Shown: positions 26,999 to 35,410 of the stretch, one piece after another | How positions within the stretch are numbered: position 1 is the first letter of the stretch | Layout: each line of letters opens with the position of its first letter | Origin: a virus | IMG/VR virus record: IMGVR_UViG_3300022872_000001 | Coordinates: 128,171 to 192,170 of that record | DNA length: 64,000 bases | Strand: one strand, 5' to 3' | Program-made: the position numbers and the translations under genes | The notes under the pieces: model-generated | Told to the model about the DNA's origin: nothing | The model's input: only the letters and a program-made list of their open reading frames with translations | The model's database searches: none

Positions 26999-27433
26999 TT
27001 AGATCAGCTTGTTGAGAGTCTTGATAAAAGCTTTGCAGTTATCAACAGTTACCTGCGCATCTTCCATTTCATACCCAACATTCTTCAAGATGAGCTTGGC
27101 TTCACTCGCCAAGTCTTTCTTGAACTTCACAAAGCTCTGACCCGAAGCGTTGATGTCATCGCTGGTCTGGTCTTTGCCACCTTTGACATGCCCCAATAGA
27201 CTGAGACCTCCGCTGCCTGGGCTCAGTGTCAGGTTACCTACAAACATATCATTGTCCCACTCGACCTCTTGATAGTCGCCGGGGTTTTCTTCAGCATGCT
27301 TCACCGCATCCCGTTTGACTTTCTTTGGGGCACCAAAGATCTTGGTGAGCCACTTCAAAGCTTCCCCTGCATCCACTTCATCAGCAGCTGTAACTTTGCG
27401 TGATTGAATACGCATTGCGGCTTCGATTTTCAT
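26999..27433 (-). CDS. Small protein with KIEA..RI leader (putative internal head protein)
   Basis: MKIEAAMRIQSRKVTAADE; SD AGGAG. Confidence 0.7.
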   Translation of the reverse strand: MKIEAAMRIQSRKVTAADEVDAGEALKWLTKIFGAPKKVKRDAVKHAEENPGDYQEVEWDNDMFVGNLTLSPGSGGLSLLGHVKGGKDQTSDDINASGQSFVKFKKDLASEAKLILKNVGYEMEDAQVTVDNCKAFIKTLNKLI

Positions 27434-28403: not shown

Positions 28404-28628
28404 TTAATACAGATTTTCAATTGCATTCAAAATCTTAAGACTGTCATCCCTTAACTGTTGTATAAAACGTTTTTGAGTAGAGTCATCCTCACTTTTCAAG
28501 GCTCTCGTTAAATCCGCAGTTACCTTTGCGGCGTTTTCGCTTGCACTTTTGAGAAATTTAACTTTTGGTTTTTCGTCTGAGGCCGTGACCTTGCACGACT
28601 GAATACGATTTGCTGCTTCGATCTTCAT
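28404..28628 (-). CDS. Small protein with KIEA..RI leader
   Basis: MKIEAANRIQSCKVTASDE. Confidence 0.65.
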   Translation of the reverse strand: MKIEAANRIQSCKVTASDEKPKVKFLKSASENAAKVTADLTRALKSEDDSTQKRFIQQLRDDSLKILNAIENLY

Positions 28629-28717: not shown

Positions 28718-29993
28718 TCAGTTATTAATCCATTTGAGAATCTTATTCTTCATTTCCTGCTTTGCTCTCTTACCTGTGTGTAATTCCCAATCAGGTTTCT
28801 TAGGCGTTGAAAGGATAAAATGAGTAATAGATCCTTTGCGCTCACCTTTAACCTTACTGCTATCCTTATTAGGACGCATTACTAATAGAAGAAAAAGGTA
28901 GCCCGCTTTCACTACAGCCTTACCTTTCGATAATACCACTGGATCTACAGTTGTACCTTTTTCCAAGCCTGCCGTGTACGCACTCTTTACCTCTATATAA
29001 AGCTTTTGGTCATTGTGCCTAATACGTAAATCTGGATAGTAATAGTGCTCTACCTTGTTTTGCGTATAAATAAAATTGCGCATCTTTTCACATACCAGAT
29101 ATTTTACAGGTATCCCCCATTTTAGGAGATAGTGCATTGCCATATCCTCATATCCTTGTACCGAGAAGGTTTTTCCAAAAGCCTCCATGGAATACGTATG
29201 ATGCAATTTCTTTATATGGGCGGCATAGTGTTCCGAATTTTGCATCGGATGCTCTACACCATAATTACGCAAATACGTATCCACCACACGCTTTCGGATA
29301 GTAGGGCTTGAACTTGCATTATCGAACCTGTATCTCTTTTGATTGGTATTTCTTGTCTTCTCTTTTAATACAAAGGACTGCATGGAGTTTTCTGCTCCGT
29401 ATCTTTCCACCATGGTTATTTTGGCTTTCTTCATGGTTTCAGGATCCTGAAACGGTACCCTATACTTACCTTTGGTCCTGGCGAGTACGGTTTGTTCTTT
29501 TTTGCGTTTAACAAGGGAAGATTGGCTAGCGTTCCTGCGTAGTGTTTCGCATCTTAGCTTGAACTTTGGCGGATTGCGCCGGACGCCTGACACCCAATTT
29601 CTTAAGGTTGGTAGCTTCTACCTTCTTCCGAACCTTTGTGGATTGGGTAGGCCACTTACAGCCACGCCTTGCCAGATTAGTTGCTTCTTTCTTCGCACGA
29701 ATTACGGGAGAATTCTGTACACAAGAGGTAGAGCAGTATTCCTTCCAACCTAAATCTAACCTGGCGAAACCCACAGGCCCCTTGCAGGTGACGCAGGTGG
29801 ATCTTGCACTGGGATTAAGGTATTGGTATAGGTGCTCTGCCTTAATAACTGCAACCTTAAATTTCTCCTGTAATTTAACCAGAAGTTTTGGATTGTGCGC
29901 ATCTAAGTATCCGTGAGGTCCGAAGTTCCGAGGTGCTGCCTCACGGATCTTAAGAATCTTCTTGTACAGCTTTTGTTTTTCTACCGTATTCAT
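28718..29993 (-). pseudogene. Frameshifted free-standing homing endonuclease (HEG3)
   Basis: 29526..29993 holds RYG/NxxQ-type repeats and stops at QER*; the next frame continues NASQSS...RYGAENSMQ...YYPDLRI....YIEVKSAYT (PD-(D/E)xK). Confidence 0.7.
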
Positions 29994-30043: not shown

Positions 30044-30870
30044 CTAAACTGAGTCCACCCAATCCGTATATTTGAACGTAATTGCCAGAGAAACGATGTT
30101 GGTACTCCCTCCGTCCATTGCGACCTCACCCATAGTCTGCGGATATAGACCAGACAGATTCACCGTACGGACTACCTCAGGTATATCATCATATACGACG
30201 ATCTGGCCAGATACCTTGTATGCGGAAGACAAGGTACCTGAATTATTACGCCATGACCGAATAGCTTCCATCCAGGCACCAAACTTCGCACGGGTACCCC
30301 AGTCATTTGTTTCCAGGAAACCCATTTGTATGGAATGGGTATAAATCTTACGACCTGGGAACGGAACAGTTACACCATGCAAGGCTACGTCCAAATCCTC
30401 GAAGGCAGTACCTGGTAATTCAAGAGTCTGACATTTGAAGGTCAGATCACGTGTATCACTAGAACCTGGAATAGCTGGCAGAAAAAGATCAAAATTCCCA
30501 CTTATGTTCCGCATTAGTCGTTACACCAATGCGCGCCTTTAGGCAGCTCTAGCTTTCACTAGAAGGTCAGACTATATCTTCACCCTGAGTAGCAGGGGCT
30601 TCCTATTTCCCGCCACTTGGCGGTACGGCTTGCGCCTAGTCGTTGAACCTTCCGCTGTTCGCGGCTTGGCTGCTGATTGCCCAATCCTAAAGTTTTTCAA
30701 ACCTTCGCGCTCACCTATATTTCAAGGTCACGCTGTGGTACTTATAGGCTCTAAGGGGTTTCCAGCAATTAAGGAAAATTTTACTGCATCATTACTAATG
30801 CAGGTCGCAGAATTTACGACTGTGCAGGATCAGGTAAACTCTGAATATCAAAAATGCTAGATCGAGCCAT
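30044..30870 (-). CDS. Tail tube protein, spliced: join(30816..30870, 30044..30498), 169 aa
   Basis: SD AAGGAG + MARSSIFDIQSLPDPAQS-T|GG-NFDLFLPAIPG...LPG...FPGRKIY...VNLSGLYP; 55+455 nt restores the frame; T4 gp19-like motifs; downstream of the sheath. Confidence 0.88.
30499..30815 (-). ncRNA. Group I intron, ORF-less, 317 nt
   Basis: P AATTGCTGGAAA (30759-70), Q GCAATCAGCAGCCAAG (30665-80), R GGTTCAACGACTAG (30636-49), S GAAGATATAGTCTG (30568-81); P1 CAGUCGU/GCGAC(C)UG with U.G at the 5' site; P10 AAAUUCU/GGAAUUU; terminal G. Confidence 0.93.
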
Positions 30871-30882
30871 ACTAGAACTCCT

Positions 30883-32112
30883 TTAATTAGTTAATATATT
30901 CTGAATAAAATTGTTCACACAGCCTCTAATGCTACTGGGTTTTTCCAGATACCAATTAGAAGCTAGGAAGAGAAACGCATCTTGTTTCTTCCTTTTGATG
31001 TGAATAATCCAACGTACTTTGTTACCACTGTCGCAGGCAATTTGGGCCTTCCTTCTATTGGTTTTTAGATCGCCTTCACCACGCCCTCCTATGTCAGTTT
31101 TACCCCGTCCCATAAATGTCCAAGGGCTTTTGCATTCAATAAACGTATCTAAGGAATGTATATAGAAATCCGGAAATGTACGCATTTCGGAAAATGCGTA
31201 GTCTGGGAAATCTTCACTAAATTCCGTAGATATATCTTTAGCCCCATATTTTGCTACCAGCCTTTTCAAGACTTCCATAGCAGACAAACCTTGAACTTTA
31301 TACTTACGACCTTCTAGTGTAATCTCGTATATGTGCCGAGATTTACTCATTGCCTTGAGGAAGAATTTCGGAATCTGCATGGCGTAAGCTTCTCCATACA
31401 CACGTTTCAAGGTCTCTTGGCCTTTAGCGCGTATGCTTGAATTACTTAGTAAATAATCAGTACCGTATTTCTTTCTATTTGTAGAGCGCACTTTAGACAA
31501 AATCTTTTCTTGCCAGTTATCTCCATATTTCCGTTGCAAGGTTACCCGTCGCTTTTCTATCGATGCAGGACGTTGCATACCATTAGTAATTCCTTCGCTA
31601 GCCATTAATTTGGCAGCACGTTTACCGCAGATGTCCCGCTTAGGATCTTTCCACGCGATCTTATTTTTCTCGCTAATATGCGCTCTTTTGAGATCTGATA
31701 CTTTCTTTGCATGGCTTATACCGCAATTAGAGCAGGTGCAAACTTTAGAATAAGCAAATTGCTCTTTACATATAACGCAAAATCTACTTTCGATGGCGGC
31801 TGAAACGTGGCGACTAAACCCACCAAGCATACGCGGGTTACTACCAAAGAAAACAAATTTTCTGTAAAGGATTTTATTATTATAAAGCTCGCGAAAGAAT
31901 ACTTCACTCAAACTTTTCATGTTGACATGCGAGGCAGACAGCTTACAGAAAAGTTTCTTTATATAAAGCGCGTCCGATTTATTCCATTCATTACGATTAA
32001 ATCTACCGACTACTTTAGGTATAATTTCTACTTTTTCAATTAACGATTTACCCACGCAAGCAGAGTGTAGCGTTATCCTACGACTTTTATTAATCCATTT
32101 ATCTAACTTCAT
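30883..32112 (-). CDS. Free-standing homing endonuclease (HEG2), PD-(D/E)xK type
   Basis: RKYG/RVYG repeats, TFPDFYIHSLDTFIECKSPWT; start at ATG 32112 (SD GGAG); stop overlaps the tube SD. Confidence 0.8.
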   Translation of the reverse strand: MKLDKWINKSRRITLHSACVGKSLIEKVEIIPKVVGRFNRNEWNKSDALYIKKLFCKLSASHVNMKSLSEVFFRELYNNKILYRKFVFFGSNPRMLGGFSRHVSAAIESRFCVICKEQFAYSKVCTCSNCGISHAKKVSDLKRAHISEKNKIAWKDPKRDICGKRAAKLMASEGITNGMQRPASIEKRRVTLQRKYGDNWQEKILSKVRSTNRKKYGTDYLLSNSSIRAKGQETLKRVYGEAYAMQIPKFFLKAMSKSRHIYEITLEGRKYKVQGLSAMEVLKRLVAKYGAKDISTEFSEDFPDYAFSEMRTFPDFYIHSLDTFIECKSPWTFMGRGKTDIGGRGEGDLKTNRRKAQIACDSGNKVRWIIHIKRKKQDAFLFLASNWYLEKPSSIRGCVNNFIQNILTN

Positions 32113-32134
32113 TTTATCTCCACACAGATTGGAT

Positions 32135-32198
32135 GAGTTCGCGCTACTAGAAGCGGTGTGGCGCTTCGGGCTGGCCGGCCTTTTCATAGCTCGAACTC
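32135..32198 (-). ncRNA. Three-way-junction element, copy B
   Basis: GAGUUCG-A-GCUA/UAGC-G-CGAACUC stem; UGAAAA; GGC-CGGCCA-GCC; GAAGCG-CCACAC-CGCUUC; UAG. Confidence 0.55.
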
Positions 32199-32216
32199 AA
32201 AAAAAGGTTTACAGGA

Positions 32217-32279
32217 TCAGTTCCAATTCTGGGCCGGATCAGCTAGGCTCTGGATATCATAAATACTGGATCTTGCCAT
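32217..32279 (-). pseudogene. Truncated duplicate of the tail tube 5' end (MARSSIYDIQSLADPAQNWN*)
   Basis: Own SD AGGAG; 17/20 aa identical to the spliced tube N-terminus; intron-less junction; TGA after codon 20. Confidence 0.8.
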
Positions 32280-32313
32280 TTAAAACTCCTTAATAAATAA
32301 ATCAGTCATTAGG

Positions 32314-32943
32314 TTAAGCCCAAGGTGCATCGACAACTACAATGGATTTATCGATGGTAGCCACAAGGACTCCTAACGGTATAGATACGTATGCTGATTG
32401 CTTGCGAACGAAACCTCGCGACAGTAGAACGTCCTCAAGTTTTAGAGGCAGCAACAATTTATTGTTGGCTGTTACCTCACGCCTGAGACCGCATATCAAA
32501 GCTATACCAGAGGTACCTTCGACAGGATGCATTACGGTGACTTCCCGTTCCTTATCGATGATCGAATTCAGTGCAATTAGTGCATCATGGAATACCGGAA
32601 GGTAATCACCTAGCAGAGTAATTACCACGCCCCACTGGGTGTCTGTCTCTCTAATCAATACAGGCTGAACTCCGCGTTTGCTATAGAACCTGGCATCCTT
32701 CAATTTCGGATCAACCTTCCACCCTAAACCATTGAAGTTTGTGGCTTTGTACCCTAAGGTGTATAGTTCACGAGCCACAGACTCTACCGTACCTTTGGAG
32801 CAGATCGTGTGATCGACCTTATTTATTTGGTATGTCTGATTACGTTTGTTGGTTATGTTGAGATGATTCAGTTCATCACAGAGTTTCTTCGCTCGCTTCT
32901 CCGTTTCATCCCGCGATTTGAATGTCTTGGCTAACTCCTGCAT
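32314..32943 (-). CDS. Hypothetical protein
   Basis: 209 aa; SD GAGGA. Confidence 0.55.
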   Translation of the reverse strand: MQELAKTFKSRDETEKRAKKLCDELNHLNITNKRNQTYQINKVDHTICSKGTVESVARELYTLGYKATNFNGLGWKVDPKLKDARFYSKRGVQPVLIRETDTQWGVVITLLGDYLPVFHDALIALNSIIDKEREVTVMHPVEGTSGIALICGLRREVTANNKLLLPLKLEDVLLSRGFVRKQSAYVSIPLGVLVATIDKSIVVVDAPWA

Positions 32944-32977: not shown

Positions 32978-35314
32978 TTAGCACATAGATAATTCCCACT
33001 TTAACTTACCGGCATCATAGATACGATGTAAATTAAGCAATTTACAGTTTTCCCACTCGGATAAGGTAGGATCAAATGCGGCAAATGTCTTCGCTAGGTT
33101 CTCACGAGTGGTAGATTGCATCGGTCTAACATCTAAAGAACCAAACCAAACTTTATAACCTGGCTTACTTTCTGACACATTAACGAATCCTAATGTTTCA
33201 TACATATCGCCATTAAACATCTGATTATCTGAATAGCTTATTATCTTTCTAGGATTCATATCCCGAATAAATGCCTTTAGAAGCTTAGATGCCCCGCCTG
33301 GGACTCTTGTTGAGGTAACGTAACGAGTTAATTCGTAAACATCCTTAACCTTTTTAGATCCTCTATTTGACCTTGTAGTATCGAAGATCATGCAAGCAAC
33401 TACTTCGCCTTCGTAGACAAGGCAATAGGCTTTACCTGTTCTAGGGGAGCCTTGTATATGGTTATTATCAACTAGAGCCTTGACGTCAGATACATTCTTA
33501 ATCTCTATGGAACACTTACGCGCAAATACAGACGCTTTACTCATTCCCAACGTATTACCTATTAGCTGGCGAATTACTCTTTTACCTCTATGCGTTCTCC
33601 ATATGTAGTCCCATACAGTAATCAAACGCCACCCTTTACTCTTAGCCTTCTTAACTCTGTCCTTAATCAGTGATGCTGCCGTAGCCTTATCCCTAGTTGC
33701 AGTTGAATCAAAATAAAGTGTTCTTAGATCTATAGCTACCCTATACTTAGAGTAATAAACGCAGTGATTTTTTACATAAAAGGAAGGATCAATACTTGAA
33801 AGATAACCAGTAACAGAATCCTCAAAATTCTTGCGTAGGGTTTCCCCAAACTGCAAATAGTGATTGAAGGTAATATGGGAAGGAAGATTATTACTCAACC
33901 ACCATTTACCTTTTAACTGGACCCAATTCTTTTCAATCCTAACAAACCAAATACACTTTCCTCTATTTGCTTTGGCTTTCTCTAGAGAGGATTTGAGGTT
34001 GTTAGGTCCTAGTAACGTCCAAAGAGATTTGCATTCTATAAATGTGTCTAGGGATTTAATGTAAAAGTCAGGTATACCGTTAATACCTAGTCTGCGCCTA
34101 GCTTTCTTGGCAACTAAATCGAAACTAGAATACACATTCTTTAGGCCAAATTTTTCTACCAGTTTATATAACAGCTCTTCCTCGTAGCTACCTTGGACTT
34201 GGATAGTCCTACCATCAATAACAATCTGTCTAAATGATAAAGACTTCTTTAATCCTTTTAAAGCTTGCTCTGGGTTTTTATTAGGCTGCTCGTAACCGTA
34301 TATTTTTAGCCAGGTAGCTTTGCACTTATCCATAATTTCTGGATTCTGGGTAGGTGTAGGAAAACCGTACAGCCTAATGCAAGTAGCCTCAATTTGTTTA
34401 CGCAAAGAAGGTGAACCCTTCGCTACACCCCCATACCTTTTAAAAGAGGTTACAGCTACCTTGGCTTTAATTGCCTTTGATTGCATGGGGTGTTCTACAC
34501 CATATCTCTCAAGGCTTGTATTAATTCTACGCTGGATACTATTCGGGTTTTTACTATTATGTGTAAAGCCCGTACGGTCGAAATATGTTTTACAGCTCTT
34601 AGCAGTGCGTAGCTTAATATCCTCAGCAGATTTACTACGCCAAGCATCGCTTTTCTTCTTCTGGATACTAAGTTTTTCTTCTAAAGATTTATTCCTCCAA
34701 GTTTTACTAGCCTTATTACTAACTGCGGCACATTGCATAGGATTTTCAGCACCGTATCTTGCAAGATTAGTTTTCTTTTTCTTTTGACGTGTCTTTTCTT
34801 TTTGTTCTTCCGTCCGAGATTTAAACTTAACTGCTCCCTTGGAAGATATATCAGGATTCTGCGCAGCTCGTTCTACTCCATACCTAGCAAGATTTGTTGC
34901 TACTAGAGATTTATCCCTAATCTCGTACCTAATCCTATGTGCTTTATTAGGAGTTCGCAAGTCACATAGAGAGCATACGGTCTTGTGCGTAAACTGCTCT
35001 TTGCAGCACGGACATATTTTCTTGTTCAGTAAAGAAAGTAGTGTTAATTTGTTATCTACGTCTTTAGCATTTCCTGATGTAAGATACGAAACCTTTTTCC
35101 ATAATTTCCTATGGTTGGTATACAATTCACCTAGTAATTGAGATGCCCAGAATCTACCTTTAGGGTTAGTAAGATTTTTATGCAGGGTTTTAACCTGCTT
35201 TCTATCGTCAGAAGTAAACTCCGACAGGTTGAATTTCCCGGTGACTTTCGCAACTTTTAATAATCTGTCTTCTGAGGAATACTTACTTAATTTAGGGTGA
35301 TTTAAAACTCGCAT
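32978..35314 (-). CDS. Large multidomain homing endonuclease (HEG1)
   Basis: Several T.L.RYG..NP.Q repeats, IPDFYIKSLDTFIECKSLWT, eroded Vsr-like segment, Hef-like C-terminus (FARKC...NHIQG...ELTRY...GGASKLL..F...SYSD...G.MY..LGF); AT-rich; SD AGGAG. Confidence 0.8.
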   Translation of the reverse strand: MRVLNHPKLSKYSSEDRLLKVAKVTGKFNLSEFTSDDRKQVKTLHKNLTNPKGRFWASQLLGELYTNHRKLWKKVSYLTSGNAKDVDNKLTLLSLLNKKICPCCKEQFTHKTVCSLCDLRTPNKAHRIRYEIRDKSLVATNLARYGVERAAQNPDISSKGAVKFKSRTEEQKEKTRQKKKKTNLARYGAENPMQCAAVSNKASKTWRNKSLEEKLSIQKKKSDAWRSKSAEDIKLRTAKSCKTYFDRTGFTHNSKNPNSIQRRINTSLERYGVEHPMQSKAIKAKVAVTSFKRYGGVAKGSPSLRKQIEATCIRLYGFPTPTQNPEIMDKCKATWLKIYGYEQPNKNPEQALKGLKKSLSFRQIVIDGRTIQVQGSYEEELLYKLVEKFGLKNVYSSFDLVAKKARRRLGINGIPDFYIKSLDTFIECKSLWTLLGPNNLKSSLEKAKANRGKCIWFVRIEKNWVQLKGKWWLSNNLPSHITFNHYLQFGETLRKNFEDSVTGYLSSIDPSFYVKNHCVYYSKYRVAIDLRTLYFDSTATRDKATAASLIKDRVKKAKSKGWRLITVWDYIWRTHRGKRVIRQLIGNTLGMSKASVFARKCSIEIKNVSDVKALVDNNHIQGSPRTGKAYCLVYEGEVVACMIFDTTRSNRGSKKVKDVYELTRYVTSTRVPGGASKLLKAFIRDMNPRKIISYSDNQMFNGDMYETLGFVNVSESKPGYKVWFGSLDVRPMQSTTRENLAKTFAAFDPTLSEWENCKLLNLHRIYDAGKLKWELSMC

Positions 35315-35343
35315 ATTCGTCTCCTGTTTAGTGGAGTAAAAGG

Positions 35344-35410
35344 CACCATAGGTATTCTAGGGTAGCTAAACCTACCCAAAGCTGGCCGGCTCTTTCAAAT
35401 ACCTATGGTG
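35344..35410 (-). ncRNA. Three-way-junction element, copy A
   Basis: 13-bp CACCAUAGGUAUU/AAUACCUAUGGUG; UGAA; AGAGC-CGGCCA-GCUUU; GGGUAG-GUUUAG-CUACCC; UAG. Confidence 0.55.

Follow-up and report, generated by a model that had tools for sequence, protein, structure and literature searches.

A putative homing endonuclease gene, a replacement first exon and a group I intron in the tail tube gene of an uncultured jumbo phage

Introduction

Free-standing homing endonucleases can act together with group I introns that have no open reading frame (ORF) of their own, an arrangement known as collaborative or trans homing. Described cases include F-CphI and the psbA intron of cyanophage S-PM2, T3/T7-like phages, and mobE with the nrdB intron of phage T4 (PMC2988022; PMC2790892; PMC6083498), as well as the terminase gene of ICP1 (PMC10448857). 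Islands of homing endonuclease genes (HEGs) that bracket essential phage genes have also been reported (Barth et al. 2023, PMC10448857), and the same work calls the origin of collaborative endonuclease/intron arrangements unclear. According to the summary given in PMC2988022, T4 introns can home in spite of limited exon homology through a one-sided, illegitimate form of double-strand-break repair (Parker, Belisle and Belfort 1999, Genetics 153:1513). Here we analyse the tail tube locus of an uncultured jumbo phage whose distant relatives include Burkholderia phage BCSR5 and Ralstonia phage phiRSL1. The stretch examined (the window) comprises the last 64 kb of the 192,170-bp IMG/VR record IMGVR_UViG_3300022872_000001. 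In this locus the putative homing endonuclease gene HEG2 is flanked by two diverged 5' ends of the tube gene, a short truncated copy on its 5' side (the stub) and the working first exon on its 3' side (exon 1'), the latter being followed by an ORF-less group I intron and by exon 2.

We propose, at a probability of roughly 0.7, that the 5' end of the tail tube gene houses a composite selfish element made up of an RNA leader, HEG2, a ribosome binding site with a replacement exon 1, and the ORF-less group I intron, and that the stub is the displaced start of the resident gene. A first-pass annotation of this DNA had likewise suggested that HEG2, a foreign exon 1 and the intron entered a resident intron-less tube gene and left the old start behind as a stub, a suggestion that gains support from the position of the stub, the synonymous divergence of the two starts, a codon that matches the intron, and the recurrence of the layout in other phages.

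Two diverged starts of the tube gene flank HEG2

The genes of the locus all lie on the minus strand, in the order sheath, HEG1, hyp209, stub, RNA element, HEG2, exon 1', intron, exon 2 and HEG3 (Table 1). As had been annotated, a Shine-Dalgarno sequence (SD) with an intron-less version of the tube start is present 5' of HEG2, and the functional start is present 3' of it. Exon 1' is 55 nt long (18 codons and a T, encoding MARSSIFDIQSLPDPAQS(W)) and, spliced to exon 2, gives a tail tube protein of 169 aa that is 79-81% identical to the intron-less homologs P0004 and P0005 (168 aa). The overlap noted earlier between the HEG2 stop and the new SD is also there: the last two bases of the TAA are the first two of the SD of exon 1', and 12 nt separate the stop from the exon 1' ATG.

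Codon-wise alignment of the stub with exon 1' and the first codons of exon 2 reproduced the annotated identity of 17 residues in 20. Most codons differ, again as described: seven are the same, ten differ synonymously and three non-synonymously, corresponding to 15 base differences in 60. The homology reaches about 25 nt 5' of the ATG and includes the SD. When the tube N-terminus was run against the 192-kb genome with tblastn, these two copies were the only ones recovered (stub E 1e-14). A repeat finder applied to the window missed the duplication, because 75% identity leaves no long seed.

Over the first 57 nt the stub and exon 1' share 43 bases, and each of them shares 43-45 with the relatives L022 and L023. 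Since the two copies resemble each other no more than they resemble these relatives, they are as diverged as alleles of different phages. Simulations of random substitution gave as few amino-acid changes in 0 of 50,000 runs. Because the divergence is dominated by synonymous changes, both copies appear to have evolved as working gene starts in separate genomes, and the codon comparison thus identifies the stub and exon 1' as xenologous, not of in-genome origin. The word "recoded", which had been applied to the duplicate, is apt for the codon differences themselves and may mean no more than ordinary divergence between donor and recipient alleles.

The codon at the insertion site distinguishes the two copies further. 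All four visible exon 1 copies that are linked to an intron (window, L037, L038 and L039) end in TCG-T, which pairs with GCGAC in the intron, and the same position is occupied by TCT, TCA or TCC in intron-less alleles and by AAT, AGT or ATC in stubs. As only exon 1' has the TCG required for the P1 helix of the intron, it belongs with the intron, and the stub with the intron-less alleles.

The arrangement does not result from misassembly. Across it, contigs obtained from several samples with several assemblers match the window at 100% identity, and the span from the stub to HEG2 is covered by L014 and by L013 plus L029, two loci cut from one Logan contig. An assembly artefact was rejected since these independent contigs are identical over the region and span the junctions.

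The stub occupies the ancestral position of the tube start

The nearest relatives (tube 79-81% and sheath 72% identical) have neither HEGs nor the intron. Their genes run contiguously in the order sheath, hyp218 and tube, with the tube ATG 18 nt after the ...PWA* stop of the preceding gene (L022-L026). In the window this gene corresponds to hyp209, which has the same ...PWA* ending as in L022 and shows amino-acid identities of 69% with the L022 gene (218 aa) and 31% with the L038 gene (248 aa). Because the stub directly follows ...PWA*, as the tube start does in the relatives, it holds the ancestral position, and HEG2 together with exon 1' constitutes the insertion.

Neither HEG nor intron occurs in the loci read from L002-L012 and L022-L026, and most of 75 tube homologs are full-length (167-169 aa). 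A tube query against metagenome contigs found two relatives only, at 56-69% identity. The duplicated 5' end was absent from all HEG-less relatives examined, so that a duplication independent of HEG2 and the intron, which the first-pass annotation had named as grounds for abandoning its proposal, was not encountered. Comparison with intron-less relatives had also been suggested as a means of recognising the resident copy. By position this copy is the stub; matching at the DNA level did not decide the point, as the relatives are too distant.

The tube gene contains an ORF-less group I intron

The intron matches Rfam family RF00028 with 74.3 bits (cut-off 50, E 9e-18). Homologous introns, 73-76% identical to that of the window, are found at the same site of the tube gene in L037 and L038, where they score 95 and 66.7 bits respectively. 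Compensatory changes among the three affect 28 of 75 predicted pairs, and P1, which pairs GUCGU with GCGAC and includes a U-G pair, is invariant. The last base of the intron is the G at 30499. The joined exons read ...PDPAQSWNFDLFLP (...PDPAQS-W-NFDLFLP; the frame gives PDPAQSWNFDLF), which equals the reading of intron-less relatives. No ORF within the intron matched a nuclease family. The possibility that the stub serves as an alternative 5' splice site was considered and rejected, as its AGAAUU cannot pair with the guide GCGAC.

Two short contigs (L014 and L015; runs SRR31153002 and SRR31153003) match the window at every base apart from the exact absence of 30815-30499. They come either from spliced RNA or from a DNA allele without the intron, and since exactly this segment is missing, the intron borders are confirmed in both cases. 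The intron is present in at least 12 contigs, and the eight places listed come from eight other samples. In a blastn comparison with known phages the conserved intron core was the sole match. The 16-mer TCGTAAATTCTGCGAC occurs 17 times in viral contigs, never in a tube gene, and these matches are due to chance or to other introns. This case adds the tail tube gene to the phage genes in which group I introns are known.

HEG2 is a putative PD-(D/E)XK homing endonuclease

HEG2 scores 59.9 bits against Pfam family DUF7487 (cut-off 27) and also matches PHROG 3339, "homing endonuclease" (E 4e-8). Its ORF is open from 32187, and its start was placed at ATG 32112 because four homologs align from residue 1 there. 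The N-terminal part contains a helical region, a cluster of Cys residues and KYG repeats. A PD-(D/E)XK nuclease domain with D315, E326 and K328 lies in the C-terminal part, and the PD...ExK motif (P314-D315, E326 and K328) is invariant in 14 homologs. In a structure model with a confidence score (pLDDT) of 87, residues ~250-403 align with TnsA (Z 7.0), Vsr (6.7), Hjc (5.1), I-Ssp6803I (5.0) and I-Bth0305I (4.9), all of them below Z 8, and a Foldseek search with the model gave PA-type and NlaIV nucleases at a best E-value of 0.04. The Z values for this model are middling, yet the list of structural matches is uniform and agrees with the PD...ExK motif. A sequence search of the PDB with HEG2 returned no match. 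The motif, the fold matches of the model and the DUF7487 and PHROG 3339 assignments together point to a free-standing, putative PD-(D/E)XK homing endonuclease with a predicted restriction-endonuclease-like fold. From this locus a plausible role can be assigned to DUF7487, which Pfam lists without a known function; no paper in the literature collection searched contained that name.

The arrangement recurs in other phage lineages

An exhaustive profile search recovered full-length homologs of HEG2 that are 31-43% identical to it, and every homolog with a readable context is located just 5' of a tube exon 1. Identities within the family, which includes P0078, P0079, P0080 and P0081, are 33-44%, and a homologous intron follows at the same site wherever the contig reaches. 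Five lineages have a HEG 5' of tube exon 1, with the intron or its start in four (window, L037, L038 and L039). L038 has the complete layout: a homolog of the hypothetical gene, an SD and stub (MVTRTSLTDVLSVGDPASSWNFLP*), a three-way-junction RNA, the HEG, an SD and exon 1' (MVTRTSLTDVLSVGDPASS), the intron and exon 2. L040 encodes a stub (...SSLQDTLSVGDPAHIWNFD, then unrelated sequence), the HEG, and an SD with exon 1', within which the contig ends. In L039 the order is HEG, SD with exon 1, and start of the intron, the 5' flank being too short for a stub to be judged. L037 has sheath, a simple hairpin, HEG, SD with exon 1, intron and exon 2 and lacks a stub; since HEG and intron are both present, a stub is not required for their pairing. 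The P0002 contig (JGI 3300069939) carries a HEG in the same position, with gaps of 219 nt on its 5' side and 520 nt on its 3' side that by size would fit a candidate stub and a candidate intron. No match was obtained when metagenome contigs were searched with the HEG2/P0002 profile, or when viral contigs were scanned with HEG2 and with P0002.

Each stub resembles the tube gene of its own genome, not the other stubs. In L038 the stub and exon 1' are identical in all 22 residues, with 13 synonymous and no non-synonymous codon differences. In L040 the 5' parts of the two copies are identical in DNA, unlike those of the window and L038: positions 1-22 (inside the stub, at the contig start) equal positions 1278-1299 (inside exon 1', at the contig end), a match of 22 nt that is consistent with recombination having ended within the repeat.

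In both the window and L038 there is no spare room between the nuclease gene and the replacement start, and in L038 the HEG ORF extends 22 nt into tube exon 1' in a different frame (L038 6203-6224).

The RNA element located 5' of HEG2 folds into a three-way junction, in which a long P1 is followed by UGAAA, a P2 with the loop CGGCCA, P3 and UAG. Equivalent elements with covarying stems precede HEG1 (35344-35410) and the HEG of L038 (L038 4906-4968), and simple hairpins occupy this position in L037 and L040. The three-way junction could regulate how the nuclease mRNA is translated or how stable it is.

Proposed origin of the arrangement

As to where cleavage falls, which way the unit moved and how the break was repaired, we infer the following course. 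During mixed infection the HEG2 product of a donor would cut a tube allele that lacks the intron, a few bases to the 3' side of the insertion site. The right end would be repaired through homology with exon 2 of the donor, with synthesis proceeding back through the intron, exon 1' and HEG2. The left end would be joined 5' of HEG2, on the first occasion without homology, by illegitimate, one-sided double-strand-break repair, and in later rounds through homology with the donor's own stub, which would then be refreshed from each recipient. The SD and first 20 codons of the recipient would remain as the stub. The tube gene would stay functional, since the cassette supplies a new start and the intron splices out, and the intron and the truncation of the stub would together destroy the target in the invaded genome. 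Refreshment from each recipient would account for stubs that are intact and conserved in protein sequence in spite of HEGs at ~40% identity. That HEG2 cuts at the intron-less junction, as first predicted, finds indirect support in the ends of the stubs, where similarity to the tube gene is lost 5 (window), 8 and 11 nt past the intron-insertion site in three lineages.

Several observations count against this proposal. Beyond the first few bases the stub tails do not resemble exon 2 significantly (p 0.05-0.7), and the junction positions in the stubs are for this reason only approximate. An extension of the stubs into exon-2-like sequence with indels allowed was tried as well; the result was suggestive in L038 and was rejected as not significant. 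Identity of exon 2 to the nearest relatives, measured in sliding windows, is flat along the gene with no step, so that no co-conversion tract is visible, and no relative is close enough (best 72% amino-acid identity, for the sheath) for the native copy to be told from its DNA. Should L014 and L015 derive from DNA, HEG2 and the stub would occur together with an allele that lacks the intron, and the intron would be dispensable for immunity. HEG2 may cut elsewhere or be inactive. Furthermore, an intact SD, ATG and open frame in the stubs of three lineages is more than would be expected of a mere fossil, and the stub may be maintained or regenerated.

This last point leads to the idea that the stub is a maintained working part, namely a left homology arm and/or a strongly translated leader ORF in front of the junction RNA, remade from the recipient at each homing event. 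We consider this unlikely as a full explanation, and it overlaps with the displacement of a resident start instead of excluding it. An arm abutting the break would make HEG2 co-inherited with the intron, and remaking would keep the stub looking "selected". In keeping with such a role, both stubs that are fully visible have an intact SD, ATG and open frame, with complete protein identity in L038; the stub stop lies 17 nt before the junction element of HEG2, and the corresponding element of HEG1 follows the stop of the sheath ORF, which is highly expressed, at a distance of 13 nt. The partial DNA identity in L040 is what a recombination endpoint in the arm predicts, and a repeat identity of 75% would also hinder deletion of HEG2 by recombination. 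The stub is nevertheless dispensable in L037, where HEG and intron occur without stub or three-way junction, and in L040 a stub is accompanied by no more than a small hairpin. With one clonal sequence per lineage, selection on the stub is not measurable, although the idea is compatible with the data. A more elaborate version, which we offer tentatively, is that of a distinct heritable "exon-carrying" homing cassette that inserts inside a structural gene, with the start of the host gene regenerated at each homing to act as left homology arm and perhaps as translated leader of the nuclease, and with the divergence of the repeats preventing loop-out of the HEG.

Two further explanations are far less probable. 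One is that the 5' end of the tube gene was locally duplicated in tandem within a single genome, with a HEG landing between the copies later and one copy decaying. Two direct copies do flank HEG2, and those of L040 are partly identical in DNA. Decay would produce mostly residue-changing substitutions and indels, however, and the codon differences in two lineages amount to 23 synonymous against 3 non-synonymous. This overwhelmingly synonymous divergence, matched by none of the simulation runs, disfavours duplication and decay, as do the divergence of the copies from each other, which equals that from other phages, the restriction of the intron-matched TCG to exon 1', and the lack of a duplication in HEG-less relatives. 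It is equally improbable that one ancient insertion in a common ancestor was inherited vertically, with stub and exon 1' kept similar by gene conversion. The deep and roughly equal divergence between lineages (HEG 33-44%, tube 50-56% and intron 73-76% identity) and the three-way-junction leader common to the window and L038 would agree with great age. Gene conversion would, on the other hand, homogenise DNA, whereas 25% of the bases differ here and the protein is kept; most relatives that branch between the HEG-bearing lineages lack HEG, intron and stub; and an unconstrained stub would not outlast divergence of the HEGs to 40% identity.

If a composite element displaced the resident start, the locus keeps both products of the event side by side, the displaced start of the recipient and the incoming start that matches the intron. 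It would then record how endonuclease-plus-intron units enter a gene, with the same outcome in three lineages. The proposal predicts that cleavage falls on the 3' side of the insertion site, within about 5-11 nt of it, that one side of the break is repaired by homology and the other by illegitimate or stub-guided joining, and that the unit can invade phages with a different 5' flank.

Neighbouring genes and other features

The coordinates of the locus are collected in Table 1. HEG1, HEG2 and HEG3 are the only DUF7487 genes in the 192-kb genome, and they bracket hyp209 and the tube gene. HEG1, which sits between the sheath gene and hyp209, is a member of the same endonuclease-gene island. The two overlapping ORFs of HEG3 encode 155 aa and 291 aa, and this gene is probably frameshifted and decaying. 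A scan for promoters and terminators gave results at or below chance. Two contigs, L031 (JGI 3300028090) and L033 (SRR11558410), begin exactly at 32286, the left edge of the duplicated SD-plus-stub block; this shared start could be a population variant or a branch in the assembly graph.

Table 1. Features of the tail tube locus in window coordinates
Feature	Coordinates	Strand	Remarks
Tail sheath	37397-35427	-	first gene in the order given above
HEG1	32978..35410 with leader; ORF 35314-32978	-	DUF7487; 778 aa; own three-way-junction leader
hyp209	32314..32943	-	left flank of the insertion; conserved gene directly 5' of tube in HEG-less relatives
Stub	32217..32291; SD AAGGAG 32291-32286; ATG 32279; TGA 32219-32217	-	20 codons, MARSSIYDIQSLADPAQNWN
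Three-way-junction RNA	32134..32199	-	from folding; 5' leader of HEG2, left part of the proposed inserted cassette
HEG2	30883..32112; ATG 32112 (SD GGAG); TAA 30885-30883	-	putative nuclease; 409 aa; DUF7487
Second SD and exon 1'	30816..30884; SD AAGGAG 30884-30879; ATG 30870; exon 1' 30870-30816	-	working tube start
Group I intron	30499..30815	-	ORF-less; 317 nt; Rfam RF00028
Tube exon 2	30044..30498	-	PHROG 45 tail tube
HEG3	28718..29993	-	DUF7487; two overlapping ORFs just 3' of the tube gene

Elsewhere in the genome, outside the window, a ThyX ORF is followed by a gene for an I-TevI-like GIY-YIG endonuclease (L028, genome 74660-77895; endonuclease gene at L028 797-1609). A weak group I intron match (22 bits) lies at about L028 1501-1736, and a 98-aa ORF 3' of it corresponds to the C-terminal third of ThyA only (Pfam positions 169-266). 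From its sequence this resembles a td-type intron/HEG cassette of which only exon 2 is seen, no search for exon 1 having been made. Within the window, two otherwise unrelated small proteins encoded on the minus strand (26999-27433 and 28404-28628) share the N-terminal leader MKIEAA.RIQS.KVTA, which corresponds to direct repeat D5 with 75% nucleotide identity.

Comparison with known systems

The arrangement appears to work like collaborative or trans homing. As in the systems described from S-PM2, T3/T7-like phages and T4, an essential phage gene contains a group I intron that has no ORF, and a free-standing HEG adjoins this intron; the allele without the intron is presumed to be cut at or near the insertion site, and a phage that carries the intron would be protected by it. 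In those systems the endonuclease gene occupies clean intergenic space, whereas HEG2 is bracketed by two diverged 5' ends of a gene, so that the unit in effect lies within that gene and supplies a start of its own. The nuclease also differs, being a DUF7487 protein with a predicted PD-(D/E)XK fold in place of an HNH or EndoVII-like enzyme, and the host gene is that of the tail tube.

The event needed to leave a stub is of the type that, in the summary available in PMC2988022, is described for one-sided repair in T4, with homology limited to one exon, microhomology at the opposite junctions and gain of the intron cassette at an ectopic site. As summarised there, the T4 events were obtained in the laboratory with engineered substrates, whereas here a natural allele is found in several samples and the layout recurs in other lineages. 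The three DUF7487 genes that bracket hyp209 and the tube gene, and that are missing from the closest HEG-less relatives, resemble the HEG islands of Barth et al. (PMC10448857), in which, unlike here, no duplicated ends of target genes were described. The stub is a candidate answer to how collaborative arrangements originate.

The nearest analogue appears to lie in the mobile ORFs of fungal mitochondria. In Allomyces atp6 such an ORF reportedly brings a replacement gene end and leaves the resident end as a remnant (Paquin et al. 1994). There, too, the endonuclease gene is said to travel with a foreign terminus, and the displaced resident terminus to persist as a non-functional duplicate. Unlike the present locus, cases of the Allomyces type reportedly concern the 3' end of a gene, an in-frame fusion, an organelle, and GIY-YIG or LAGLIDADG enzymes with no accompanying intron. 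What is new here is the xenologous pair of gene starts flanking a free-standing HEG, the recurrence of this pair, the nuclease family and the host gene.

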